This document shows, one piece after another, positions 1,168 through 14,297 of a DNA stretch of 17,569 bases. Within the stretch, counting starts at the first letter, position 1. The number at the start of each line of letters is the position of its first letter. Both the position numbers and the translations under genes were made by a program. The DNA is from an uncultured ANME-1 euryarchaeote (GTDB lineage Archaea; Halobacteriota; Syntropharchaeia; Alkanophagales; Methanospirareceae): contig CBDAFQ010000013.1 of the NCBI GenBank assembly GCA_965195275.1, positions 1 to 17,569 of the forward strand, given 5' to 3'. The notes under the pieces are model-generated. The model was given only the letters and a program-made list of their open reading frames with translations. It ran no database searches and was not told the origin of the DNA.

Positions 1168-2442
1168 ATGGGGAAGCAATTCTTAGAAATCGTTGAGAAA
1201 GAGAAGGTAGAAGAAATAGTTGCCGAGCTCAGTGCGAAACTTGCAAAGCAGACAGAGAAGGAAAAAGCGGGTATCGACGAAGCGCTCGGTAGAATTGCAG
1301 CTACAGACATCTTTTCAGTTCTCAATATCCCCCCTTTTGACCGAGCAACTATGGACGGCTACGCAGTGGTTGCCGCTGATACATTCTATGCAGACGAAAA
1401 CAATCCCGCCTCGTTGATTATAAGAGGATATGTCCCTGCGGGCGAGTTACCTTCACAAGATGTAGAAAGCGGCTATTGCTTGGGCATATCTACCGGCGCA
1501 CCTATCCCGAAAGGTGCAAATGCTGTTGTCAAAATCGAAAACACATTTCTTGATGATGCCGAAATAAAAAAGGTGAAGATATACAAACCAGTCGCTCCTA
1601 ACGAGAACATCATGCTCGCAGGCACGGATATAAAGCGAGGCGAGCGGATAGTAAAGGGGGGGACCATGCTAACGCCACGTGAGACCGGTGTTCTGGCTGC
1701 ATGTGGGCTAAACGAAGTCTCTGTACGTAAAAGACCGAAAGTTGCAATCATATCCACGGGCAATGAGATACTCGTGCCTGGCGAAGACCTCAAACCGGGA
1801 AAGATATACGATGTTAATGCGCAGGCAATCAGCGATTCAGTTAGAGACTGCGGCTGTGTCCCTTTAGCTCTTGGAATTGCACGCGATAACGTCAACGAGA
1901 TTTCTGGAAGCTTAAAAGAGGCATTAAAAAGGGATGTTGATGTTATAATCGCCTCGGGCGGTACCTCGGCAGGCGTTGGTGACCTATTGCCAAATGTGAT
2001 AGAAGAGCTTGGCGAGATTATCGTGCATGGCGTTGATATAAAACCAGGAAAACCGCTCATCTTCGGCTTGATCAGGGGAAAACCGGTGTTTGGATTGCCT
2101 GGCAATCCTACTTCTGCGTTAATTACCTTTAACCTTTTCGCAGCCCCTCTGCTACGCACAATAGCCGGTATCCGCTCGCTCGAAGAAGGCGAAAGGCGAA
2201 GTGCAAAAGCTGCAATTAGGATCTTCTCCGAGCGAGGGCGAAATGAATACGTACTTGTAAATCTCATGCCCCTAAACGATGAATTACTTGCATATCCTAT
2301 TCTCTCCGGCTCCGGTGCTATTACAACCCTATCAAAAGCGGATGGCTATTTGTACATGGCGAAAGGGAAGGAGATACTGGAAGAAGGGGAAATGGTGGAA
2401 GTTAAATTATTGACGAACCGAAATCAGCTCAAAAATCGGTGA
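1168..2442 (+). CDS. moeA: Molybdopterin molybdenumtransferase MoeA (gephyrin E-domain family)
   Basis: MoeA motifs are present: PPFDRATMDGYAV, GGTSAG, GLPGNPTSALITF. The 424-aa length is typical. Confidence 0.85.
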   Translation: MGKQFLEIVEKEKVEEIVAELSAKLAKQTEKEKAGIDEALGRIAATDIFSVLNIPPFDRATMDGYAVVAADTFYADENNPASLIIRGYVPAGELPSQDVESGYCLGISTGAPIPKGANAVVKIENTFLDDAEIKKVKIYKPVAPNENIMLAGTDIKRGERIVKGGTMLTPRETGVLAACGLNEVSVRKRPKVAIISTGNEILVPGEDLKPGKIYDVNAQAISDSVRDCGCVPLALGIARDNVNEISGSLKEALKRDVDVIIASGGTSAGVGDLLPNVIEELGEIIVHGVDIKPGKPLIFGLIRGKPVFGLPGNPTSALITFNLFAAPLLRTIAGIRSLEEGERRSAKAAIRIFSERGRNEYVLVNLMPLNDELLAYPILSGSGAITTLSKADGYLYMAKGKEILEEGEMVEVKLLTNRNQLKNR

Positions 2443-2488
2443 TTTTTGAGCTGACAATGCAAAATGGAAAGTGCAAAAGTCAAAGTTC
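2425..2488 (+). repeat. Copy 1 of a recurrent gene-3'-end element. A perfect 12-bp-stem hairpin CAGCTCAAAAAT-cggtg-ATTTTTGAGCTG straddles the moeA TGA stop, followed by the conserved tail GACAATGCAAAATGGAAAGTGCAAAAGTCAAAGTTC.
   Basis: The palindrome can be read directly. The tail is nearly identical to the reverse complement of 5346-5384 and similar to 5256-5286 and 10176-10210. Confidence 0.7.
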
Positions 2489-2509
2489 AATAAAAAGCGA
2501 TACACTCAC

Positions 2510-4234: not shown

Positions 4235-4681
4235 ATGGCAAAAATAGAACTCGTTTGCTGGAAGGATAAAATCGGTGGCGAAATAGAGAGACAGGTAACA
4301 GATGCGTTCAGCTATGGCTTTACCATTGGTTCGCATGGCGAATGGGAGATGGCAATAGCGAAGGAGGATAAAGAAGTTTCGAAAAACGAACTCGTGAACA
4401 TAACGATAGAAGATATAGAGTTGCCGCCAAAGGCGATAGTCTTGCCTTGTAACATAATGCGACATGCACTTGGCATTGTTTCTTCGTTCGCGGCTGTGGG
4501 ACAGCCAAAGAGTGTAGAGGAAAAGAGAGTGCTTAATGAAGCTATTTTTCACCCCCTGTTTGATGGTAAGGTAAGTAAAGGCGAATTACTCTCTGTTGTG
4601 AATATATTTTATGCTGCGGTAGAGCGAAGGCTTGCGAGAGGTGCTGCGGAGAAGTGGCTGCGCGAGCGATACAAGTATTAG
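4235..4681 (+). CDS. Hypothetical protein. The track ORF begins at GTG 4211, and the first ATG is at 4235.
   Basis: The 148-156-aa ORF overlaps the downstream kinase gene by 28 nt, which suggests a co-transcribed unit. I recognised no family. Confidence 0.45.
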   Translation: MAKIELVCWKDKIGGEIERQVTDAFSYGFTIGSHGEWEMAIAKEDKEVSKNELVNITIEDIELPPKAIVLPCNIMRHALGIVSSFAAVGQPKSVEEKRVLNEAIFHPLFDGKVSKGELLSVVNIFYAAVERRLARGAAEKWLRERYKY

Positions 4682-5253
4682 CTTTCGTCGGTGCGCCCGC
4701 GGCCGGGAAGACAGAAGCGGCATCGGTAGCTAAGACGCTTGGCATTCCGATCATAACCATGGGTGACGTGATAAGGGCGGAGCTAAGAAGGCGAGGTCTT
4801 CCGTTAAGCGACGAAAATGCGGGCAGAATTGCATCGGAGCTGCGAGCGCGAGAAGGAATGGATGCGATTGCAAAACGGTGCATCCCACATATAAAAGCGA
4901 TAGCTGGTAAAAAAGCGGTTATCGTAATAGATGGTATAAGGGGCATCTCCGAAGTGGAAACGTTTAAAAAAGAATTTGGCACTGATTTTACGCTTGTGAG
5001 AGTGGATGCCCCTCTCAATCTCAGATATGAGCGGATAAAGACCCGTGGCAGAGGTGATGACTCGCTTAGTATCGAGGAATTTAAGGCACGAGAAGAGAGG
5101 GAGAAAGGGTGGGGAATGGGAGAAGCAATGAAAAATGCTGATAATGTTATAACGAACACGGGTTCTCGAGAACACTTTAAAGAACAGATAGAAGAGATTT
5201 TAGCTTCTTCGATACCGGAATATGGTAATTGCTCAAAATCTTGTGGATTTTGA
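4654..5253 (+). CDS. P-loop nucleotide kinase of the archaeal UPF0200 / CoaE-like family. The track start is GTG; an alternative start is the ATG at codon 36.
   Basis: The N-terminal Walker A motif is VLAFVGAPAAGKTEAA. The 199-aa length and overall pattern resemble archaeal UPF0200 proteins. Confidence 0.6.
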   Translation: MAARAIQVLAFVGAPAAGKTEAASVAKTLGIPIITMGDVIRAELRRRGLPLSDENAGRIASELRAREGMDAIAKRCIPHIKAIAGKKAVIVIDGIRGISEVETFKKEFGTDFTLVRVDAPLNLRYERIKTRGRGDDSLSIEEFKAREEREKGWGMGEAMKNADNVITNTGSREHFKEQIEEILASSIPEYGNCSKSCGF

Positions 5254-5286
5254 GCAATTAATTTCAAAATGCAAATTGCAAAATAT
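5231..5286 (+). repeat. Copy 2 of the 3'-end element. The hairpin GCTCAAAAT-cttgtgg-ATTTTGAGC straddles the TGA stop of the UPF0200 gene, followed by AATTAATTTCAAAATGCAAATTGCAAAATAT.
   Basis: It has the same hairpin arms (GCTCAAAA / TTTTGAGC) and the same ATGCAAAAT..TGCAAAA tail as copy 1. Confidence 0.65.
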
Positions 5287-5345
5287 AAAACGGTAAAATG
5301 GGCTCTTTTAACTTTAAAGCAGCCATTAACACCATCTGTTGAACT

Positions 5346-5413
5346 TTGACTTTTGCACTTTGCATTTTAAATTTTGCATTATCAGCTCAAAAAAAACAAA
5401 GGTTTTTTGAGCA
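5346..5413 (-). repeat. Copy 3 of the 3'-end element in minus orientation, downstream of the minus-strand gene 5442-5876. The hairpin is GCTCAAAAAA-aacaaagg-TTTTTTGAGC at 5385-5412.
   Basis: The reverse complement reads GCTCAAAAAACCTTTGTTTTTTTTGAGCTGATAATGCAAAATTTAAAATGCAAAGTGCAAAAGTCAAAGTTC, which matches 2427-2488 nearly position for position. Confidence 0.7.
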
Positions 5414-5441
5414 GATACGGAACATGTATAGAACCACGAGA

Positions 5442-5876
5442 TTATACAACGGCGCTTGCTACATCTCTGCTTTCTGTGGCGGCCAACCTGTATTGTCTCT
5501 TTGCCCTACTTCCTTTTCTCATCAAAATACCAGTAGAATGGAAGTTCCCTAAATATGTAGATATTGTAGTAAGTCCCACTTTCTCATCATACACGTCTTC
5601 ATATATACACCTTACCTCTGAAGAAGTGAACCAATCCTTTGGTGCCTTTTCATCAAAGCGCAAAAAGGATGCCAATCGCTCCTTTATCGTAAGTTCTTCG
5701 CCTTCATAATAATCATCAACTGCCGGCGAAGAAAGGTGCGTCTCCAAAAACTTTGTCACGTCATTTATAGTCATCTGTCGGAGCAGCTGGATTTGTAAAT
5801 CGCCCTCCTTCTCCAGGGTTGTTTTTGTACCTTCTTCATCCGTTACCTCTACCCGCACCTTTAGCATCGCTTTCAC
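5442..5876 (-). CDS. Hypothetical protein with a probable C-terminal winged helix-turn-helix DNA-binding domain; candidate transcription regulator
   Basis: The C-terminal segment SSEVRCIYEDVYDEKVGLTTISTYLGNFHSTGILMRKGSRAKRQYRL has a helix-turn-helix-plus-wing pattern. The gene is divergent from dnaJ. Confidence 0.5.
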   Translation of the reverse strand: MKAMLKVRVEVTDEEGTKTTLEKEGDLQIQLLRQMTINDVTKFLETHLSSPAVDDYYEGEELTIKERLASFLRFDEKAPKDWFTSSEVRCIYEDVYDEKVGLTTISTYLGNFHSTGILMRKGSRAKRQYRLAATESRDVASAVV

Positions 5877-5914
5877 CTGTTCACATATTCAGTGAACAAG
5901 TGAAGGTAAGGAAG

Positions 5915-5930
5915 AGGTTATATATAAAGG
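5915..5930 (-). promoter_or_regulatory. Strong TATA box (TTATATATAAA) preceded by a purine-rich BRE-like stretch, about 40 nt upstream of the minus-strand ATG at 5876
   Basis: It is a canonical archaeal TATA read directly from the sequence. The box is near-palindromic, so its orientation is inferred from the gene spacing. Confidence 0.45.
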
Positions 5931-6099
5931 TATTGCTGTAAATGTACAAAATCTCATTAGCGTCACTTGCTGATTTTTGACGTTTACCCCTTTTTATTTT
6001 ACACCTTACACGTTTAATTCTATGCTCAACCGCAGCCAAACTTTTGAGTTGACACCTCTGTTTCCTGTGGAGTGAGGTAGTGAACAGTGAACCTTGCTA

Positions 6100-6112
6100 A
6101 AACTTTATAGCA
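6100..6112 (+). promoter_or_regulatory. TATA-like box (AACTTTATAGC) about 45 nt upstream of the dnaJ start, with a GTGAACAGTGAACC motif immediately 5' of it
   Basis: I read it by eye. The spacing is compatible with a short 5' UTR. Confidence 0.35.
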
Positions 6113-6152
6113 TGAAAGACAAAATTATTAAGTAGTAGAAGGTAATGCAAAA

Positions 6153-7349
6153 TTGACAGAGAAGAAAGAGTACTACAAAACCTTAGGTGTAGATCGCGGA
6201 TCATCGCAGGACGAAATAAAGCGTGCTTATCGGAGATTAGCAAAAAAATATCATCCTGACCTCAACAAGGAGAACCACAAGGAATCCGAGGAGAAGTTTA
6301 AAGAGGTATCCGAGGCTTATGAGGTGTTATCGGATTCACAGAAGAGGGCGAATTATGATAGATTTGGGAGTGCAGGCGTTGATTTCGGTCGTGGTGGATT
6401 TGAGTGGTCTAATTTCACACGGTTTAGCGATGTAGAGGATATATTTGGAGGCTTATTCAAGGACCTTTTTGGCGGTAATTTCGGTAGATCTCAAGGCGGC
6501 AGCTCCATGTTCGATGACCTCTTCGGCCGGGGACAGACAGGGGCAGATGCAGGATACCGGCCAGAGAGAGGAAGCGACATCAGGTATGATCTTGAAATAG
6601 ACCTTGAAGATGCTGCGATGGGGATGGAAGAAGAGATAAGCATTGCTAGACGGGATTTCTGTCCCAATTGTAGCGGAACGGGCGCGAGTGCAGGCGGATT
6701 GGAAACCTGTGCTACTTGCGGAGGAACGGGACAGGTAAAAAGAGTGCAAAGGCAGGGCTTTGCACAATTCATTTCTATCGGTTCCTGCCCTCGATGCCGA
6801 GGAACGGGAAAAGAGATAAAAGATCCATGTGAGAATTGTAACGGAAACGGTAAAATCAAAGTGAATAAGAAGATATTAGTGAAGATGCCTGCGGGCGTAG
6901 ATACCGGAAGCAGATTAAGGATTGCAGGAGAAGGGAACGCAGGCGAGAGAGGAGGTCCACCGGGCGATTTGTATGTGATGATACATGTAAGGGAGCATGA
7001 ATTCTTCAAAAGAGGGGGCAACAACCTGTTTTGTGATGCTCCTGTTCACTTCGCGCAGGCGGTGTTTGGCGATGAGATAGAGCTAATGACGATAGAAGGC
7101 GGCACGGTAAGACTAAAAATGCCTGCTGGCACGCAATCGGGCACGGTCTTCCGACTGAAGAACAAAGGAATGCCCGATTTAAGGGGCTATGGGAAAGGTA
7201 ACATGCTAGCGAAAGTGCAGGTTATAACACCGTCAAAACTGAGTAAAAGGCAAAAGGAACTGTTACGTGAATTTGATGAGGGAGAAGAAGCAGGGGATAC
7301 GCAAAAGAAAAGTGCCTTTTGGAAAAACAAAAAAAAACAAAGTAAGTAA
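6153..7349 (+). CDS. dnaJ: Chaperone DnaJ (type I Hsp40) with a probable TTG start
   Basis: The J domain (YYKTLGV ... KKYHPDLN) is followed by a Gly/Phe-rich region and four CxxCxGxG zinc-finger repeats ([32 protein letters not shown]), then the C-terminal substrate-binding domains. Confidence 0.9.
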
Positions 7350-7369: not shown

Positions 7370-9130
7370 GTGAAAGGTATGAAGCAAGAGATACGAACGC
7401 CCATACTCTCGGTACTTGGACATATAGATCATGGTAAGACCTCACTACTTGATTCGATACGGGGCACAGCAATCACAGCAAAGGAAGCAGGTCGTGTGAC
7501 GCAGCATATAGGTGCGACAGAAATCCCTATTGATACAATAAAAAAGATTTGTAAACCACTAAAAAGGGATTGGACAGGAATAGAAATACCTGGTTTGCTT
7601 TTCATTGACACTCCAGGGCATCATGCCTTCGCATCATTGAGGAAACGCGGAAGTGCTTTAGCTGATGTCGCGGTCCTTGTAGTGGATGTGATGGAGGGTT
7701 TTCAACCGCAGACATACGAATCGTTAAACATTTTAAGGCTATTAAAAACGCCTTTTGTTGTTGCATTGAACAAAATAGACCGGGTAAGTGGCTGGAATTC
7801 GACGAATAAACCTTTCATTATCAATTATAAAGATCAGCCGGATTATGCGCGGAATGAACTGGACGCGCGGATATATGATATGGTAGGAGACCTTTACGAT
7901 AAAGGCTTCTCGGCTGACAAGTATGACCAGATAAGAGATTTCGCAAAGACTGTGGGTATTGTGCCGCTGAGTGCACAGACCGGAGAAGGGATTGCTGATT
8001 TACTCCTTGTGCTCATAGGATTATCGCAGAAGTTCTTTGAGATGACTCTGCGTCTACATTTAGAAAAAGCGGGTGTTGGCACGATATTAGAGAAGAAGGA
8101 GGAAAGAGGGCTCGGAACTACGATTGATGTGATATTATATGATGGTAAGATCAGCGTGGGCGATACAATCGTGGGTGGTGGCACTGATGAGGAACCAATA
8201 GTTACAAAGGTGAAGGCATTGCTGAAACCAAGAGCACTGCAAGAGATACGGGTAGAGCAACGGTTTGAGCGGGTAAAAACGGTGAATGCCGCTTCTGGTG
8301 TGAAGATAGTAGCACCGAATATAGAAACTGCGCTCCCGGGTGCACAGGTGAGAGTGGTTGGAGAAGGAGATGTACTTGAGAACGTGGTGAAATTGGTTAA
8401 GAGCGAGATAGAGGAGATGAGGATGGAGACATCACCAGAAGGGCTAATAATAAAGGCAGATACCATGGGCTCACTGGAAGCGCTTGCTTCTGAGCTGCGA
8501 GATGAAGAGATAGAGGAGATAAAAAAGGCAGAGGTTGGGAATATATCTAAAAGGGATGTGATAGATGCGGGTACGGTTAAGAACCGTTATTCCGGTGTTA
8601 TTTTGGGCTTTAATGTTGACCTCCTCCCGGATGCAAAAGAGATGGTTAGGGAGAATGGAATACCAGTATTTATAAGCGATGTCATTTACCGGTTGATAGG
8701 AGAGTATAAGGACTGGATGAAGGGAGAGAAGGAGAAAGAGAAGCGTGAGATTATCGAACGGCTGCCCACACCTGCTAAGATTAAGATCCTGCCTGGGTGT
8801 GTGTTCAGGCAAAGCAAGCCCGCCATCGTAGGTGTGGAAGTTCTTGGTGGGAAGATACAAACAGGTGTGGACCTGATAAAAGCGGATGGTACCAACATAG
8901 GCACGATAAATGAGATACAAGATAAAGCAGAGAGCATAAAAAGTGCGGGACTGGGGATGCAAGTCGCTATTTCAATGAAGAAACCGACTGTGGGGCGGCA
9001 AATAAATGAGAAAGATCTATTATATGTGGATATTAGCAAAGAAGAAGCGAAAGCACTATCTGGTTTGTTGTCCGCTGATGAAGAGGATGTGTTAGAGGAG
9101 TTGATGAAACTAAAAAGCCGGCATTTGTAA
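7370..9130 (+). CDS. infB: Translation initiation factor aIF5B (archaeal IF-2 homolog)
   Basis: The G-domain motifs are GHIDHGKTSLLD (G1), DTPGH (G3) and NKID (G4). The 586-aa length is typical of aIF5B. The gene starts 20 nt after the dnaJ stop and has a GGTGAAAGGT ribosome-binding site. Confidence 0.9.
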   Translation: MKGMKQEIRTPILSVLGHIDHGKTSLLDSIRGTAITAKEAGRVTQHIGATEIPIDTIKKICKPLKRDWTGIEIPGLLFIDTPGHHAFASLRKRGSALADVAVLVVDVMEGFQPQTYESLNILRLLKTPFVVALNKIDRVSGWNSTNKPFIINYKDQPDYARNELDARIYDMVGDLYDKGFSADKYDQIRDFAKTVGIVPLSAQTGEGIADLLLVLIGLSQKFFEMTLRLHLEKAGVGTILEKKEERGLGTTIDVILYDGKISVGDTIVGGGTDEEPIVTKVKALLKPRALQEIRVEQRFERVKTVNAASGVKIVAPNIETALPGAQVRVVGEGDVLENVVKLVKSEIEEMRMETSPEGLIIKADTMGSLEALASELRDEEIEEIKKAEVGNISKRDVIDAGTVKNRYSGVILGFNVDLLPDAKEMVRENGIPVFISDVIYRLIGEYKDWMKGEKEKEKREIIERLPTPAKIKILPGCVFRQSKPAIVGVEVLGGKIQTGVDLIKADGTNIGTINEIQDKAESIKSAGLGMQVAISMKKPTVGRQINEKDLLYVDISKEEAKALSGLLSADEEDVLEELMKLKSRHL

Positions 9131-9282
9131 CCACAAGATTACACAGATTTCCACGAGAGAAATTGTGAAGATGCAAGAAAATAAATTATTGACACAGATT
9201 AACGCAGATTGACACAGAAGAAATCAAATCAGTGTAAATCTACGTCTTAAATATGTAGAAGTTATACTTTAGATACAACAAG
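9128..9282 (+). repeat. Copy A of a roughly 160-bp interspersed intergenic repeat (TAACCACAAGATTAYACA ... ATTATTGACACAGATTAAC ... CAGAAGAAAT.AAATC.GTGTAAATCT ... GAAGTTATACT ... ATACAACRAG). It begins at the infB stop codon.
   Basis: It shows block-wise identity with 13964-14128 in the same orientation. The internal short direct repeats are CACAGATTAAC / GCAGATTGAC / CACAGAAG. Confidence 0.7.
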
Positions 9283-9302
9283 ATACAAGTCAAACTTGTA
9301 TC
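9282..9302. terminator. Hairpin GATACAAG-tcaaa-CTTGTATC between convergent gene ends (infB plus strand, HEPN gene minus strand)
   Basis: It is a perfect 8-bp inverted repeat. A related hairpin built from the same GATACA/TGTATC arms lies at 10228-10255. Confidence 0.4.
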
Positions 9303-9317
9303 CTGCATCTGACATTA

Positions 9318-9699
9318 TTACAAAACCCACTTAAGCGTCAGCACAAGTTCCTTTACGGCTTCTGCGTGATCCATTACCGTTTCCGGTGGTAACCAGTCCT
9401 CATAGAAGTTCTGATGTAAGGTACTTGCGAGACTAAATAACCGTACGAGCTCCGGCTCTTCAAGTTCCGTACCCATTTTTTGATACGAATGTATACAATT
9501 CGGCATGCGATTTTATTACAATGCCTCGCCGTGCTGCTATCGCCTTGACGATTTCAGCAGCAGCGCCCCGGAGCTTCTCAGATGCCTGAACAAAGTCCTC
9601 CTTCGCTATCAGCGCATACGCGTCCATCGGATATTTATCGTTCAATTTGAGATACTGTTTGTTCTGCTTTTTGCGCATATGCTTCACTGCTCGTAGCAT
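9318..9699 (-). pseudogene. HEPN-domain protein of the PaREP1-like family, disrupted by a frameshift in an A6 homopolymer (plus-strand T6 at 9476-9481)
   Basis: Two overlapping minus-strand ORFs (9460-9699 and 9318-9506) together give ...DFVQASEKLRGAAAEIVKAIAARRGIVIKSHAELYTFVSK / MGTELEEPELVRLFSLASTLHQNFYEDWLPPETVMDHAEAVKELV. Removing one A from the A6 run fuses them into one continuous HEPN-like protein of about 125 aa. Confidence 0.6.
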
Positions 9700-10172: not shown

Positions 10173-10210
10173 TTGTGGATGCGAAACAAAATGGAAAGTG
10201 CAAAATAAGT
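10170..10210 (+). repeat. Copy 4 (truncated) of the 3'-end element, reading GATTGTGGATGCGAAACAAAATGGAAAGTGCAAAATAAGTAAA. It begins at the rps6e TGA stop.
   Basis: The core CAAAATGGAAAGTGCAAAA is identical to the core in 2461-2479. Confidence 0.6.
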
Positions 10211-10227
10211 AAATATTAAAGATGCTT

Positions 10228-10297
10228 GATACAAGATGCAGGTCAAACGTGTATCATGTATCCGGCATCCGGTATCAGACATCGTTTTCTTGTTTTA
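10228..10297. terminator. Hairpin-like inverted repeat (GATACAAGATGCAGGTCAAACGTGTATC) followed by the T-runs TTTTCTTGTTTT, between convergent genes rps6e (plus) and the HD hydrolase gene (minus)
   Basis: It shares the GATACAAG/TGTATC arms and the CTGCATC motif with 9282-9310. The oligo-T tract is at 10285-10296. Confidence 0.4.
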
Positions 10298-11500
10298 ACG
10301 CCATAAGACCAACTCCGCCGCTTTCTTTACCTCTACCCGATATTTTTCAAGTGTGTAGACCCCCACTTTATAATTTTCCTGGAATGCTTGACTGAGCATA
10401 GACACGAGCGATGAAACTTCCCGTAAGCTTCTTAAGTCATTACCAACCGCGACTTTCGCAGCACTTTCTTTTACGTCTTCGCCTTTTTCTCCTTGAATAT
10501 CCAAAATGACATAGTTCATATCTACACCAGCTCGCTTACTTATCTCTTCTTCTAATTCCTTTCTTCGCTTTTCCGTTCTTAATTCCTCTGCTACACACAG
10601 GTCATTTATGCTTGTATATACCGCACGTTTGAATAATCGTCTCTCGTTTATCCGCACCATCATCTCCCTTGGATAACCTTTTGCATTCCTCAACGCAATA
10701 TCTAGTTCGGAATCATCCATTTGTCGCAATGCCAACGCGTCAGATCGCGATTCTATGCGATACTCAAGTGCTTTCAAGAGCATCAACTGCGCTATCCTAG
10801 CCGTGTGGTGTTTATAAACTGTAGGCGACATTAAGAATCGAGAGAAGAGTAAATATTCCGCTGGTAGTATCCCTTTTTCTGTTATGACAAGGCGGCCATT
10901 GAAGAACTCCAGGCCTTGTATGAGCCTTATATTGTCAACAACGCCGTATGCAACGCCAGTATAGTAGGCATCGCGAACCAAATAATCCATCTTATCCACG
11001 TCTATTTCTCCGTTTAAAAATCTCGAAAAATCGTGGTCGTCGTCATCGTCCCCCCCTACCCCTTTTATATAGCGCATTACCTTTCTCTTATCCACGCAAT
11101 GTTCTTCTAAGACGTCAGCAATAGTTTTAGAGTGTTCTGCGTCTTGTTTAAAGATTATATCCTCAATATCCTCATGACTTTTTCCCGTGATTTTTTTTAG
11201 CAGTGGTTCCGTCACGTGCGAGTAAGGACCATGACCGATGTCATGAATCAAGGAAGCGACAAGAAGCTCTTTCTCTTCCGCTTTTGATACTTCCAGTGTG
11301 TCAAGCAAGACGTTCGTCAAGTGATAAGTTCCAAGAGAATGTTCAAACCTCGTGTGATTTGCTCCCGGATAAACCAAATAAGCGAACCCAAGCTGTTTTA
11401 TTCGTCGCAACCTCTGCATCGCCGCGGTGTCGATTATCGCGATTGCAAGCGCATCTAGTTCTATATACCCGTGTATTGGATCTCTTATTACCGTTTGCAT
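10295..11500 (-). CDS. HD-domain phosphohydrolase (dGTPase / SAMHD1-like dNTP triphosphohydrolase family). The start is placed at the MQTVIRDPIHGY methionine, not at the upstream track ATG.
   Basis: DPIHGYIEL is the characteristic N-terminus. The HD motif is IHDIGHGPYSH. The TATA box TTTATATAGTAATTC (reverse complement of 11534-11548) sits at the right distance upstream of ATG 11500. Confidence 0.8.
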   Translation of the reverse strand: MQTVIRDPIHGYIELDALAIAIIDTAAMQRLRRIKQLGFAYLVYPGANHTRFEHSLGTYHLTNVLLDTLEVSKAEEKELLVASLIHDIGHGPYSHVTEPLLKKITGKSHEDIEDIIFKQDAEHSKTIADVLEEHCVDKRKVMRYIKGVGGDDDDDHDFSRFLNGEIDVDKMDYLVRDAYYTGVAYGVVDNIRLIQGLEFFNGRLVITEKGILPAEYLLFSRFLMSPTVYKHHTARIAQLMLLKALEYRIESRSDALALRQMDDSELDIALRNAKGYPREMMVRINERRLFKRAVYTSINDLCVAEELRTEKRRKELEEEISKRAGVDMNYVILDIQGEKGEDVKESAAKVAVGNDLRSLREVSSLVSMLSQAFQENYKVGVYTLEKYRVEVKKAAELVLWR

Positions 11501-11600: not shown

Positions 11601-13073
11601 TTACGCTATTTTTCGTCTCCGTACTGAATATGCAACTGCGAACAGAGACGCAATAGCGAAACCAACTTCAAAACCGGGTGGTGTCGGCGTTGGAGTCTCA
11701 GCAACAGTCGACTCTGGAGTTTCTACCACAGTTGGCGTTGGAGTCTCAGCAACAGTCGGCGTTGGGGTTTCAACAACCGTAGGCGTTGGTGTTTCTGCCA
11801 CTGTTGGCTTTGGCGATGGTGTCGACGGTACGATTGGACCCTTCAGCTCGAGTGGGTTCCCATATACAACACGTCCATTGTCGGTAATAGTCCATTCACA
11901 GAAACACCCCATCACATCACCGTGCTCATCAAACGTGATTTCGCCAGAAGCACCCAGATAGTTTATGGAATAAAAACCTTTTCGGATAGTATCTAATGCT
12001 TCACCGATGTCAGAAACGTCTTTATTTCCTGGCGGATTTGCAACATCTCGTAAACTGTCACGGATAGCCGTTCCGGAAGTGTCACCCGCTTTTTCTATCG
12101 CAAGTGCTACCACAGCCACTGCATCATAGCTGTTAGCGCAGTAGGCTTCAGGCTCCTTCCCGTACTCGGCCAGATATTTCTGCCGGAATGTTTCGTATGC
12201 GGGACCTCGCGAGTCAGGCGTTGTCCCTTTTAATCCCGCTATAATATAGTTACCCGCCTCGTCCTTGCCCACCATATCTGCCAAATTGTCACTCTTGAGC
12301 CCCTCAGAAAGTAGCCAAGCTATATTATCCATATAGCCGTTCTTGTATGCCGCTTTCAGCATACCACTGCCGGTCTCCGGATATGCACACAGCATAACGC
12401 AATCAGGATTCACGGCTGCTACTTGCTCTACTTCCGAATTGAATGTGGTTGTGTCAGGGTCGTATTTCACGGATTCCAATACCCTTCCGCCGAGCGTTTT
12501 GAATTCCTTCGTGAATGCCTTCTCGAATCCTACTCCGTATGGGTTCCAAACTACCAGCGTGCTCGCTGTCTTATAGCCCTGTTGGATAGCAAGCCTTCCC
12601 ATCGCTATTCCTTGCAATGCGTCAGAAGGGCATGTTCTAAAAAAGAGATCGTTGTCCGGATAGGTTGTAAATTCCACGCCTGTAACAGAAGGTGAAATCT
12701 GAAGAACGCCGTTACTCGTGGTATAACCAATGATTGCCTTGCAGGTTTCGCTGCCCGCTGTTCCGATTATTACCGAGACAGGGTACCAATCAAGGAGTTC
12801 ATGTGCCTTCACAACGGCTTCATCTTCTGACGTTTCGGTATCCTTGATTATAAGCTTAAGTCTTCCGCCGAGTACACCGCCGTTTTCGTTTACCTCTTTC
12901 ACTGCCAGATTCATCGCATCTGTCTCAGGTTTTCCGTACGCGCCTAAGTCCCCGGAAAATGGATAAAGAACTCCTATAGTCACATCTTCAGCACCCACCG
13001 TGCCCACGGATAGAACGGCTGCCAGAACAAAAGTTGCAATAACTAAACCCTCTGTTAAACCTTTTGTATTCAT
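11601..13073 (-). CDS. ABC-transporter-type solute-binding protein (periplasmic binding protein type 1, Liv-like) with an N-terminal signal peptide, a Thr/Pro-rich linker and a C-terminal PGF-CTERM archaeosortase sorting signal
   Basis: The N-terminus MNTKGLTEGLVIATFVLAAVLSVG is a signal peptide. The body resembles branched-chain amino-acid binding proteins. The C-terminus carries repeats of PTVAETPTPTVVETPT followed by PPGFEVGFAIASLFAVAYSVRRRKIA, that is PGF, a TM helix and a basic tail. An AAGGAGG ribosome-binding site lies just upstream of the ATG on the minus strand. Confidence 0.8.
   Translation of the reverse strand: MNTKGLTEGLVIATFVLAAVLSVGTVGAEDVTIGVLYPFSGDLGAYGKPETDAMNLAVKEVNENGGVLGGRLKLIIKDTETSEDEAVVKAHELLDWYPVSVIIGTAGSETCKAIIGYTTSNGVLQISPSVTGVEFTTYPDNDLFFRTCPSDALQGIAMGRLAIQQGYKTASTLVVWNPYGVGFEKAFTKEFKTLGGRVLESVKYDPDTTTFNSEVEQVAAVNPDCVMLCAYPETGSGMLKAAYKNGYMDNIAWLLSEGLKSDNLADMVGKDEAGNYIIAGLKGTTPDSRGPAYETFRQKYLAEYGKEPEAYCANSYDAVAVVALAIEKAGDTSGTAIRDSLRDVANPPGNKDVSDIGEALDTIRKGFYSINYLGASGEITFDEHGDVMGCFCEWTITDNGRVVYGNPLELKGPIVPSTPSPKPTVAETPTPTVVETPTPTVAETPTPTVVETPESTVAETPTPTPPGFEVGFAIASLFAVAYSVRRRKIA
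11686..11832. repeat. Tandem 24-nt direct repeats (about 6 units of GTTGGAGTCTCAGCAACAGTCGGC-like sequence) encoding the TPTPTV(A/V)E linker of the binding protein
   Basis: The periodicity can be read directly. It gives rise to the spurious antisense ORF 11596-11961. Confidence 0.7.
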
Positions 13074-13899: not shown

Positions 13900-13963
13900 C
13901 TGATTATCTATATATACACCTTCATAGATTTAAATCAGTGAATTATAGTTGATTCCGAAGTTA

Positions 13964-14128
13964 TAACCACAAGATTATACACATTTTTTACAAGAAAGCA
14001 TAATATCCAACTAAAATTGATTATTGACACAGATTAACACTGATTAACGCAGAAGAAATTAAATCCGTGTAAATCCGTGTAAATCTGCATCTTGAATGGA
14101 TGGAAGTTATACTGGTATATACAACGAG
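13964..14128 (+). repeat. Copy B of the roughly 160-bp interspersed repeat, with an internal tandem duplication AATCCGTGTA x2
   Basis: It aligns block-wise with 9128-9282 in the same orientation. It lies in a 400-bp intergenic region between two minus-strand genes. Confidence 0.7.
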
Positions 14129-14297
14129 AGAACAATAACAGGAATCCATTTTCTGTCTTTCATCTTTGATTTTATCCCATATCAAGCACTACTTCTTGTG
14201 TTAATCTCGTGAAATCTCGTGGTTTATTAATTGCAATTTATTACGGGAATGGGCCATATACCACCTGGGGGTACTCATAGATCTAAAGTGGTTTGCT

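Follow-up and report, generated by a model that had tools for sequence, protein, structure and literature searches.

The two repeats that we call copy A and copy B, located in the 17,569-nt stretch of ANME-1 DNA analysed here (the window), belong to a high-copy, modular family of intergenic elements, which we interpret with moderate confidence as a mobile or recombination-exchanged, Correia-like promoter/operator cassette of an order-level ANME-1/Methanophagales lineage. These cassettes make up a large and apparently undescribed family across ANME-1, the searchable literature having returned nothing relevant on ANME-1 repeats, MITEs or promoters. In each cassette, two to three left 10-bp iterons (CnGATTAAC) are separated by an exchangeable centre from one to three right iterons in inverted orientation (GTGTAAATC), beyond which an AT-rich right arm (consensus TAAATAGGTAGAAGTTATACTTTATATACAAT) carries a TATA-like box and ends at a sharp limit of conservation (...TATATACAAT).

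According to the proposed mechanism, the right arm would act as an outward-facing archaeal promoter, whose TATA-like box is positioned ~23 nt ahead of the sharp right boundary, such that transcription would start at this boundary, this being expected to yield leaderless or short-leader mRNAs for whichever gene adjoins. The phased iterons located upstream would then serve as operator sites for a multimeric, sequence-specific DNA-binding protein, which could be a regulator or else the enzyme (transposase/recombinase) responsible for moving the cassette. We infer the existence of a binding protein and of a mobilising enzyme, as well as the site at which transcription starts, while the assignment of the right arm as a putative promoter, together with its start and its regulation, is drawn from position and sequence.

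Copies A and B and the family to which they belong

The preliminary description of this DNA had quoted five sequence blocks as being shared by the two copies, and all five were found in both, in identical order and orientation. The sequence TAACCACAAGATTA begins at 9128 in copy A and at 13964 in copy B, the 19-mer ATTATTGACACAGATTAAC is present at 9185-9203 and 14020-14038, respectively, and pairwise alignment gives ~80% identity with a single indel of one 10-bp unit, copy B possessing an additional right iteron. Chance can be dismissed as the origin of this likeness because the 17-mer left end is present three times in the window, where 0.05 occurrences would be expected, copy A is linked to copy B by repeat families D2, D5 and D14, TRF reports arrays with a 10-bp period at 9188-9218 (3.1 copies), 14023-14053 and 14060-14085 (100% matches), and the family profile matches both copy A (9129-9279, E=8e-27) and copy B (13965-14125, E=2e-33; placed by nhmmer at 13992-14125 with E=2e-33). 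Copy A indeed starts at the infB stop codon (TAA at 9128-9130, with AACCAC from 9129), the gene located 5' to it specifying an archaeal aIF5B/IF-2-type GTPase (Pfam), and the AACCAC junction at this stop codon, be it TAA or TAG, recurs in two metagenomic relatives, L119 and L120. The right ends, previously placed at 9282 and 14128, had to be moved inwards by a few bases to the conserved boundary at 9279 and 14125. The parts of copy A and its surroundings are as follows.

9129..9161, + strand: 'A-type' end AACCACAAGATTACACAGATTTCCACGAGAGAA, overlapping the aIF5B stop codon
9176..9224, + strand: left arm, comprising an AT-rich box AAGAAAATAAATTATT, the 19-mer (9185-9203) and three phased 10-bp iterons, CACAGATTAAC, GCAGATTGAC and ACAGAAGAAAT
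9225..9246, + strand: centre CAAATCA, a single right iteron GTGTAAATC, then TACGTC (from the family alignment)
9247..9279, + strand: right arm, the most conserved block of the family, at the end of which conservation stops
9247-9254, + strand: TATA-like TTAAATAT of the right arm
9255-9267, + strand: invariant block GTAGAAGTTATAC of the right arm
9268-9275, + strand: TTTAGATA of the right arm, followed by CAAC
9282..9302, no strand assigned: hairpin GATACAAGT-CAA-ACTTGTATC with a perfect 9-bp stem (inverted pair I2)

The single right iteron of copy A is inverted with respect to its left iterons (inverted pairs I1 and I4), and the promoter-module profile matches its right arm with E=3e-10, the predicted transcription start being near 9277-9279. 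Copy A is an orphan because no ORF is present downstream of this arm, which faces the hairpin as well as a broken PaREP1 gene in antisense. The hairpin itself, which separates copy A from the 3' end of the minus-strand PaREP1 fragment, is conserved in sequence in both L119 and L120 and does not belong to the family consensus. The corresponding features of copy B, together with a solitary end found elsewhere in the window, are given below.

13945..13989, + strand: outer flank module ATAGTTGATTCCGAAGTTAT and degenerate A-type end AACCACAAGATTATACACATTTTTT of copy B
13990..14059, + strand: left arm with module ACAAGAAAGCATAATATCCAACTAAAATTG, the 19-mer (14020-14038) and iterons CACAGATTAAC, ACTGATTAAC and GCAGAAGAAAT
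14060..14091, + strand: centre TAAATCC, two right iterons, then TGCATC (from TRF and the family alignment)
14067-14075 and 14077-14085, + strand: the two right iterons GTGTAAATC
14092..14125, + strand: right arm with a degenerate TATA-like TTGAATGG, then ATGGAAGTTATAC, TGGTATATA and CAAC
14193..14224, - strand: 'G-type' end AACCACGAGATTTCACGAGATTAACACAAGAA, inverted with respect to the end at 13965
5432..5448, + strand: solitary end AACCACGAGATTATACA with one mismatch (repeat families D6 and D7)

The right arm of copy B, matched by the promoter-module profile with E=2e-4, points at the 3' end of an opposite-strand radical-SAM gene, no co-oriented ORF being present downstream, and copy B, like copy A, is an orphan. 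The absence of terminal inverted repeats, as stated in the preliminary description, does not hold for copy B, which is bracketed by inverted AACCAC[A/G]AGATT ends (13965 on the + strand and 14224 on the - strand). It extends to the inverted AACCACGAGATT... end at 14193-14224, and the ends at 13965 and 14224 close a 260-bp composite, located between the radical-SAM gene and a phosphopantothenate synthetase gene and flanked by a 13-nt direct repeat (12 of 13 positions identical; 13922-13934 and 14275-14287), while copy A possesses the left end only. The flank type ATAGTCATTCCGAAAATTAT-AACCACAAG seen at copy B recurs in five related loci (L041, L052, L056, L057 and L058). The PPS upstream region (13900-13945) was considered as a reverse promoter module and discarded, the profile match not being significant. 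The solitary end, which overlaps an unannotated minus-strand 144-aa ORF, is accompanied by a weak right-arm-like TAAATATGTAGA at 5549-5560, spaced as in copy A; because the core profile gave no significant match at this site, it may at most be regarded as a possible remnant of a family element.

That these are copies of an interspersed repeat family was borne out well beyond the window, as the 19-mer was retrieved from >114 contig stretches in 26 archaeal assemblies, mostly ANME-1/Methanophagales (14 of the 26 being explicitly named as such). The ~142-nt consensus profile yielded 251 matches, 178 of which are non-redundant, in 732 kb of related loci, a sample that was seeded by the exact 19-mer and that holds extra copies besides the seeded ones. 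The 12-mer AACCAC[G/A]AGATT is present 92 times in the same 732 kb against ~3 expected. The density of the family is ~1 copy per 10-15 kb, with two copies in the 17.6-kb window. With a core of ~142 nt and a copy-B composite of 260 bp, the family is small, non-coding, dispersed and high-copy, as is characteristic of MITEs, and its two core arms form an imperfect palindrome or inverted repeat over ~45-60 nt, as read from the sequence. Copies are 85.4% alike between genomes versus 87% within one genome, the adjacent genes being only ~75-77% identical between species. A local two-copy duplication without function, named in the preliminary description as the refuting outcome, is refuted by the hundreds of copies in 26 assemblies; as nothing speaks for it other than the presence of both copies in one window, we give it practically no credence.

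Position relative to genes and the candidate promoter arm

Based on a crude calling of ORFs in the related loci, 168 of the 178 copies (94%) are intergenic, though ~80% of the DNA is ORF. The right-hand neighbour is co-oriented with the copy in 49 of 70 cases, the other 21 copies facing the 3' end of a gene, and 34 of the 70 are situated between co-directional genes. Downstream ATG-ORFs start at -4 to +33 nt relative to the right boundary, 42 out of 49 at ≤30 nt from it, such an ORF being found at 25% of positions in a random control, and several copies exhibit a Shine-Dalgarno-like GGAGG or GGTGA between boundary and ATG. Eight divergent intergenic regions (134-208 bp) consist for the most part, and in three cases entirely, of the element; some divergent spacers keep 31-74 bp of non-element DNA, which could hold a promoter, in which case the element would be a 5' UTR. 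The genes located 3' to the copies are unrelated housekeeping genes, including those for an ABC-2 permease, a PurQ-like amidotransferase, a DRG GTPase, HMG-CoA reductase, isopropylmalate dehydrogenase, a GatA-like amidase, an Lrp regulator and a response regulator.

The TATA-like 8-mer, present in the aligned copies as TTAAATAG, ATTTATAG or TTAAATAT, is located at a fixed distance of 25 nt from the right boundary (last box base to last base of CAAT); ordinary genes of these genomes have 35-55 nt between TATA and ATG. Assignment of the box is ambiguous because the arm contains a second TATA-like box (TTTATATA), the two being 25 nt apart. A better conservation of the promoter arm in gene-proximal copies than in orphans was considered and not found, right-arm mismatches being 2.5 in orphans versus 2.9 in gene-proximal copies (p=0.82), and this equality is not predicted by selection for driving the next gene. 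It would fit a purely selfish MITE-like repeat without a promoter role, in which arm and iterons serve only for recognition by a transposase, and in which proximity to start codons results either from preferential insertion into AT-rich promoter DNA or from insertions being tolerated at such sites. We hold this to be unlikely, since copies are found 0-30 nt upstream of essential housekeeping genes, the fully filled divergent spacers leave no other site for a promoter, and the orientation bias is strong (49 to 21).

An element acting at the level of RNA, be it a 5'-UTR leader, a REP/BIME- or BOX-like operon spacer, or a small RNA family with a palindrome hairpin, could explain the copies placed between co-directional genes (34 of 70), the ability of the palindrome to fold, a sense strand that is rich in purine and A and thereby resembles the coding strands of this genome, and the positioning of similar arrays in viral contigs 10-35 nt ahead of start codons. 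It is quite improbable in view of the folding results. The search for conserved structure with compensatory changes, advocated in the preliminary description, revealed none: RNAalifold on 40 copies gave a consensus fold of -0.57 kcal/mol with 9 predicted pairs, none of them compensatory, and 27 of 66 variable iteron positions pair versus 28.3 expected if independent. Single-sequence folds of copies A and B have weak z-scores (-0.9 and -1.9), an Rfam search of the whole window at a permissive E-value produced no match at the element and a chance RsaOG match elsewhere, and the A-A mismatch conserved in every iteron pair, together with the unequal iteron numbers, speaks against a selected stem. 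A structured non-coding or cis-regulatory RNA is not supported, given the lack of compensatory pairs, excess pairing and an Rfam family, and among the three options originally offered the regulatory cassette fits best, while the non-coding RNA gene finds no support. The internal short direct repeats, earlier likened to iterated protein-binding sites, proved to be family-wide 10-bp iterons, whose helical phasing and conservation without covariation are suggestive of such sites at the level of DNA.

The layout of the cassette is also reminiscent of archaeal ORB/DUE origins and plasmid centromeres, in which inverted phased iteron arrays surround an AT-rich centre. Chromosome-level binding sites (origin-like, partition or nucleoid-organising) acting in place of transcription would be compatible with orphans that are as conserved as other copies, yet we consider them highly improbable, given a density of ~1 per 10-15 kb, the absence of an adjacent orc1/cdc6 gene in the window, and an orientation and tight start-codon spacing that would be left unexplained. 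A replication origin does not fit, given two copies in 17.6 kb, hundreds in relatives and no Orc1/Cdc6 domain among the window ORFs, and neither does a CRISPR leader, as TRF detected in the window only the 10-bp iterons and one coding 24-nt repeat.

Exchange between cassettes, probable mobility and viral contigs

Cassettes and AACCAC-ended MITEs insert into, and recombine with, each other. In related genomes the ends seen at copy B delimit MITEs of 114-126 bp (a typical length being 125 bp) with terminal inverted repeats and 8-bp target-site duplications; among related AACCAC MITEs of 114-141 bp such duplications are clean (AGATTAAC in L004, CTTTCTTT in L043, ATATAATC in L061 and AAATTGCT in L022), and one of these MITEs was found inserted into a core centre and another into a promoter arm. 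Inverted pairing of ends as at copy B delimits elements of 114-358 bp at 18 other places, and the centre cassette is swapped between L113 and L080, the flanks of which are 99% identical. This mosaic of nested insertions with 8-bp duplications, the inverted arrays on both sides of the centre, which resemble multi-site transposon ends, and the MuA-like transposase genes adjoining iteron arrays in viral contigs would likewise suit a selfish repeat, against which it must be set that the core copies have no recognisable target-site duplication and that no cognate transposase was found in the ANME-1 loci. Neither an autonomous element nor a transposase with matching ends was detected in the 732 kb, being a limited sample of the genomes; distant inverted iteron arrays and distant GTATTTGTATAGC pairs were both unconvincing as autonomous elements, with no kb-scale end pairs, and tblastn with a viral MuA-like protein gave no match in ANME-1 loci. 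An empty/filled site pair sought via the PBP-HD gene junction (window versus L065) was unusable because synteny breaks there.

The cassette might alternatively be an operator-promoter that is fixed in place and serves a very large host regulon, being inherited vertically and kept alike by selection for the binding of one global regulator. The 19-mer, exact across 26 assemblies, the near equality of identity between and within genomes, and the persistence of copies at orthologous positions in three species (L007, L045 and L069) agree with this, but we regard it as rather unlikely because the downstream genes share no function, ~30% of copies are orphans facing gene ends, the evolution of orthologous copies outpaces that of their flanks and cassettes are exchanged between 99%-identical loci. 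Identity is 83-93%, with 13-85 gap columns, for orthologous element regions versus 92-99% for coding flanks. Core presence also varies among close relatives, the copy-A core being missing after infB in L119 and L120, that is, at aIF5B identities of 94% and 90%; L116 has no element after infB, and a relative with 79% aIF5B identity has a plain 190-bp spacer at this position.

Similar iteron modules were encountered in uncultivated viral contigs, in three of which (L124, L137 and L148) the arrays are adjoined by MuA-like transposase genes. IMG/VR contained no match to the 19-mer or to the AACCAC end pattern, the GenBank phage and PLSDB plasmid collections no match to the element, and a short viral array query yielded only two marginal matches among phages. 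The major capsid protein of contig L115 had no match among named phages and the MuA-like protein of L124 was matched by bacterial Mu-like phages only (23-28% identity); Pfam revealed no recognisable small DNA-binding protein among the ORFs that surround the array-rich part of L124. A speculative extension, whose correctness we rate as unlikely, is that one trans-acting protein common to ANME-1 and viruses reads the iterons and wires many transcription units, housekeeping ones included. A DDE/Mu-type transposase that has become domesticated, or a small repressor, would be conceivable as this protein, the cassette centre would be exchanged by site-specific recombination, and head-tailed and Mu-like transposable viruses would carry the module to join the circuit or would have been its source. 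Should ANME-1 be the host of these viruses, they would also represent Mu-like transposable viruses of archaea, of which to our knowledge none have been described.

Comparison with known elements and significance

A close comparison is with the Correia elements (CREE) of Neisseria, which are ~100-160 bp, non-coding, high-copy and mostly intergenic MITEs with outward promoters, a site for a DNA-binding protein and subtypes, located mainly immediately upstream of genes (PMC10969869). The ANME-1 family resembles them in size, copy number, intergenic location upstream of genes and subtypes, promoter and binding site being putative here. Correia elements belong to bacteria, where they are conserved within one genus, and possess sigma-70 promoters together with an IHF site and terminal inverted repeats of 26 bp, whereas the ANME-1 family is archaeal, has a TATA-like box, 10-bp iteron arrays, a swappable centre and no core target-site duplication found, and is conserved across a whole order. 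The putative mobile promoters of Matus-Garcia, Nijveen and van Passel (2012) are similar upstream regions before non-homologous genes (PMC3488235), and in both cases highly similar upstream regions precede non-homologous genes within and between genomes. That survey grouped sequences by similarity alone, described no iteron architecture and predates ANME-1 genomes, and the copy number and cross-species breadth of the present family are much larger than those of a typical mobile-promoter group.

Archaeal MITEs listed to date include SM1-4 of Sulfolobus, those of Halobacterium and the palindrome-associated elements of Haloquadratum (PMC10969869). They share with the present family the character of small, non-autonomous intergenic repeats, the AACCAC relatives behaving as classical MITEs with terminal inverted repeats and 8-bp duplications, and differ from it in that no parent insertion sequence was identified here. 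No report of ANME-1 MITEs was present in the searchable literature, and we know of no archaeal MITE with a promoter arm and phased iteron arrays. Repeats spaced by helical turns, in direct and inverted arrays that abut promoters or element ends or overlap with them, are a feature of the operators of omega of pSM19035 and parC of plasmid R1 (ribbon-helix-helix/ParR-type) and of the ends of Mu and Tn7. The likeness of the ANME-1 iterons to these is conceptual only, as the sequence of the iterons is another one and no protein of this kind has been linked to the ANME-1 elements, and Mu generates 5-bp duplications in contrast to the 8-bp ones of the related ANME-1 MITEs. Pneumococcal BOX elements and enterobacterial BIMEs are comparable as intergenic mosaics of a few recurring modules in variable number and order; they act, as far as is known, as RNA stem-loops, while no structural covariation was found in the ANME-1 family.

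ANME-1 archaea consume much of the methane in marine sediments and are uncultured, with almost nothing known of their transcription and its regulation. The cassette, present in every sampled ANME-1 genome and directly upstream of many unrelated housekeeping genes, represents a candidate promoter/operator for reporter and DNA-binding experiments and a candidate global cis-regulatory code, by means of which the binding protein could be fished out. The iteron modules in viral contigs offer a new lead, based on sequence, by which viruses may be connected with their hosts. Finally, cores, centre cassettes and AACCAC MITEs constitute mobile markers for strain-level evolution, which could also improve fragmented MAG assemblies, as these probably break at such repeats.

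Two copies in the window and the site of copy A

The repeat proposed in the preliminary description is real: the blocks reported as shared between 9128-9282 and 13964-14128 (TAACCACAAGATTA, the 19-mer ATTATTGACACAGATTAAC, CAGAAGAAAT, GTGTAAATCT and GAAGTTATACT..ATACAAC) are present in both segments, here named copies A and B, in the same order and orientation. The two copies are approximately 80% identical, the chief difference being one additional 10-bp unit in B, and are connected by families D2, D5 and D14 of a repeat finder run on the window, where three occurrences of the 17-nt left end compare with 0.05 expected from shuffling. Each copy begins with the motif AACCAC[G/A]AGATT.

Features of the window (strand where assigned)
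2425-2490 (+), 5339-5416 (-), 5260-5283, 10187-10205: second interspersed family, AATGCAAAATGGAAAGTGCAAAAGTCAAAGTTCAA
2556-2676 (+): predicted intron-containing tRNA with a long variable arm
5442-5876 (-): putative 144-aa ORF without Pfam hit, its 3' end overlapping a solitary AACCACGAGATTATACA end
9128-9130: TAA stop codon of infB
9129-9279: copy A
9188-9218: 10-bp-period array of copy A (Tandem Repeats Finder)
9282-9310 and 10234-10262: 29-nt inverted pair (GATACAAGTCAAACTTGTATCCTGCATCT and its partner) enclosing the PaREP1-S6e segment
9318-9699 (-): PaREP1, in two overlapping ORFs (9318-9506, 9460-9699)
11683-11837 (-): 24-nt tandem repeat, about five copies, within the PGF-CTERM periplasmic-binding-protein gene
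13922-13934 and 14275-14287: 13-nt direct repeat TCATAGAT[T/C]TAAA, 12/13 identical, bracketing a composite of about 340 bp that contains copy B
13965-14125: copy B
14023-14053 and 14060-14085: 10-bp-period arrays of copy B (Tandem Repeats Finder)

As described previously, copy A starts at the infB stop, with AACCAC running from 9129; the upstream gene encodes an archaeal aIF5B/IF-2-type GTPase. This copy has a left end only, and its right arm faces a 9-bp-stem hairpin (9282-9302) followed by the antisense strand of the PaREP1 gene, which is probably split by a frameshift. Copy B is flanked by inverted AACCAC-type ends at 13965 (+) and 14224 (-), spanning 260 bp, so that the earlier statement that terminal inverted repeats are lacking does not apply to it, and its outer flank modules are found again in L041, L056 and others. 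The right arm of copy B, in which the TATA-like box is degenerate (TTGAATGG), is directed at the 3' end of an opposite-strand radical-SAM gene. No protein-coding ORF was found beyond the right arm of either copy, and both are therefore orphans. The 13-nt direct repeat around copy B could have arisen as a long target duplication or as a recombination scar, or be due to chance.

The window is archaeal; it also encodes ribosomal protein S6e and a phosphopantothenate synthetase, besides PaREP1 and the PGF-CTERM protein, and its genes show 75-77% DNA identity to Methanophagales MAG contigs. The second interspersed family adjoins a terminator-like hairpin (TCAGCTCAAAAATCGGTGATTTTTGAGCTGA) at the 3' ends of genes and recurs in the ANME-1 loci L091 (86.6% over 153 nt), L029 and L068. 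The tRNA was detected only by ARAGORN with introns allowed, being missed by default ARAGORN and by Rfam. The 24-nt tandem repeat encodes a Thr/Pro/Glu-rich linker ahead of the C-terminal anchor, and the first arm of the 29-nt inverted pair holds a perfect 9-bp-stem hairpin.

Metagenomic relatives of the copy A site were retrieved via aIF5B. Two of these, L119 (94% identity) and L120 (90%), retain AACCACAAGATTACAC at the stop codon and the downstream AGTCAAACTTGTATCCTGCATC, and carry between them other content without the iteron-plus-promoter core, while in L116 (79%) the infB-S6e spacer is a plain 190 bp and contains neither element nor PaREP1 gene. The copy A core is accordingly a lineage-specific acquisition; since PaREP1 is missing from the spacer of the more distant L116, it was probably inserted along with the repeats.

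Consensus, range and placement of the family

The canonical consensus of approximately 142 nt reads ACAAGAAAGCATAATATCCAACTAAAATTA-ATTATTGACACAGATTAAC-GCTGATTAAC-GCAGAAGAAATCAAATC-CGTGTAAATC-TGTGTAAATC-TGCGTCC-TAAATTAAATAGGTAGAAGTTATACTTTATATACAAT, and in canonical copies conservation collapses directly past the final CAAT (the right boundary). Its left side contains two or three 10-bp units, or iterons, mostly ACAGATTAAC, GCAGATTAAC or ACTGATTAAC. Inverted iterons, from one to three, occupy the right side and follow the pattern GTAAATC-n-G; the spacing is 10 bp throughout on both sides. The iteron type is fixed by side, the left always being TTAAC and the right always TAAAT, and each unit of any hairpin would therefore contain an A-A mismatch. 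Between the arrays the centre varies, the short GCAGAAGAAATCAAATC being replaced by at least three recurrent longer modules. In the right arm, an AT-rich stretch of varying length leads from the iterons to a TATA-like 8-mer (TTAAATAG, ATTTATAG or TTAAATAT), whose distance to the invariant GTAGAAGTTATAC-TTTATATA-CAAT is fixed.

An exact scan with the 19-mer, using one genome per species, returned at least 114 stretches among matches listed from 28 assemblies; among these, 26 assemblies are archaeal, 14 of them explicitly named ANME-1, Methanophagales or Methanophagaceae and the other archaeal ones bearing coarse MAG names. One listed match lies in a Deltaproteobacteria bin, and a Halobacillus match, without any further family feature, was dismissed as chance. 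An nhmmer profile of the core gave 251 hits (178 non-redundant) in the 732 kb of fetched loci, and recovered copy B (E=2e-33) and copy A (E=8e-27) in the window. Approximately 57 of the 178 copies lie beyond the seeded ones, which suggests a density, in a rough and biased estimate, of about one copy per 10-15 kb. The element has no match in Rfam, among GenBank phages or among PLSDB plasmids, and such repeats are not mentioned in two ANME-1 genomics papers or in a large MITE survey.

Crude greedy ORF calls account for 80% of the DNA; by these calls, 168 of the 178 copies are intergenic. Where both neighbours were called (70 copies), the gene past the right arm runs in the same direction as the element in 49.

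Orientation of left neighbour, element and right neighbour
-> -> ->: 34 of 70
<- -> ->: 15 of 70
-> -> <-: 11 of 70
<- -> <-: 10 of 70

An ATG-ORF of 60 aa or more starts at -8 to +80 nt of the boundary in 49 of the 87 copies whose right end is intact, compared to 25% at random positions, establishing a placement bias; 42 of these ORFs begin within 30 nt, and in several copies a ribosome-binding sequence of the GGAGG or GGTGA type lies between boundary and ATG. Divergent spacers of 134-208 bp (n=8) are mostly filled by the element, wholly so in three (L018, L050 and L098), while others, such as L094, leave 31-74 bp of non-element DNA. The downstream genes are functionally unrelated (among them those for an ABC-2 permease, PurQ-like amidotransferase, response regulator, inositol monophosphatase, DRG GTPase, Lrp/AsnC regulator, HMG-CoA reductase, isopropylmalate dehydrogenase and GatA-like amidase), which a fixed regulon operator, as a rival explanation, would have to accommodate.

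In these genomes, the TATA-like boxes of ordinary genes lie 35-55 nt ahead of the ATG, and GGAGG is found at -20 to -11. The fixed 8-mer may act as a TATA box, in which case transcription would start at the ...ACAAT boundary; such a start would account for the sharp stop of conservation, would render leaderless the seven ORFs that share their ATG with CAATG, and would give the remaining downstream ORFs short leaders. A possible alternative TATA box is the perfect TTTATATA that precedes the boundary by 12 nt. These transcriptional assignments, throughout the family, derive from position and sequence. The right arm is equally well conserved in orphans and in gene-proximal copies, which cuts against a simple promoter story; a chromosome-organising site is one of the rival explanations.

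DNA-level constraint, turnover and associated MITEs

The conserved fold with compensatory changes for which the preliminary description proposed a search, as an RNA-level element, a further rival reading, might display, was not recovered: RNAalifold on 40 copies gave -0.57 kcal/mol without a compensatory pair, variable iteron positions showed no excess pairing (27/66 observed versus 28.3 expected if independent), and single-sequence folds had z-scores of -0.9 and -1.9. Together these results argue for constraint acting on the DNA sequence and not on a stem.

Turnover is evident between related genomes. L113 and L080, whose flanks are 99% identical, differ by the exchange of a 26-nt centre for a module of approximately 100 nt, and a centre replacement of like kind separates L007 and L069. 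In orthologous pairs, element-bearing spacers are 83-93% identical versus 92-99% for coding flanks and contain 13-85 gap columns, some being replaced altogether. Copies are 85.4% identical between genomes, about equal to the 87% within one genome, while neighbouring genes are only about 75-77% identical between species, which we read as ongoing turnover or homogenisation about a consensus under constraint, and not as ancient insertions decaying slowly.

The motif AACCAC[G/A]AGATT occurs 92 times in the loci versus about three expected. It forms inverted pairs 114-126 bp apart whose outer ends are the inverted repeats GTATTTGTATAGC and GTAATTGTTTAGC, delimiting small elements of approximately 160 bp from outer end to outer end.

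Small AACCAC-ended elements
L004: 3606-3766 and 7152-7313
L043: 1046-1206
L061: 160-336
L022: 3320-3482
L068: 6523-6685

Clean 8-bp target-site duplications (AGATTAAC, CTTTCTTT, ATATAATC, AAATTGCT) accompany most of these elements, of which one sits in a core centre (duplication AGATTAAC) and another in a promoter arm; they are genuine MITEs. They share the building unit CAC-R-(A)GATT with the iterons. A purely selfish MITE is a rival reading of the core itself; for the cores, no target-site duplication was found, nor an autonomous partner in the 732 kb.

Viral iteron arrays and the nature of the cassette

Neither the 19-mer nor the AACCAC end pattern has a match in IMG/VR. That collection contains generic iteron arrays (GTGTWAATC-n-GTGTWAATC) in 33 stretches versus roughly seven expected by our own estimate, with several contigs having 3-6 intergenic arrays each. 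The viral arrays terminate in CGTGTCTAA or in CGTGGTTAA, which matches the host AACCAC end when reverse-complemented. L129 has complete palindromic modules (1038-1121, 2520-2605), each made up of left iterons, an AT-rich centre and right iterons and showing the TTAAC/TAAAT asymmetry of the ANME-1 core. In L115, a head-tailed virus with HK97-type capsid protein, protease and adaptor, arrays (5782, 8720-8738, 11461-11479) lie 10-35 nt upstream of structural genes. Three further contigs encode a MuA-like DDE transposase.

MuA-like transposase genes (Pfam DDE_2, rve, HTH_Tnp_Mu_2, Mu-transpos_C)
L124: 309-2156 (-)
L137: 3-671 (-)
L148: 3-305 (-)

In all three an iteron array (AACCACGGATTAACACAGATTAACAC; 2128-2146 in L124) is located at the very 5' end of the gene, and L124 has dense array clusters nearby (4514-6823). 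A relationship between these arrays and the ANME-1 family is a possible lead, not a result.

Within the sequence sampled, the family is confined to ANME-1/Methanophagales-type archaea. Its members are iteron-bearing intergenic cassettes that span an order-level lineage, and the family appears not to have been described before; its best-supported reading, which we favour with moderate confidence, is a mobile, Correia-like promoter/operator cassette, which would combine promoter function with recognition by a binding protein and movement by a mobilising enzyme.
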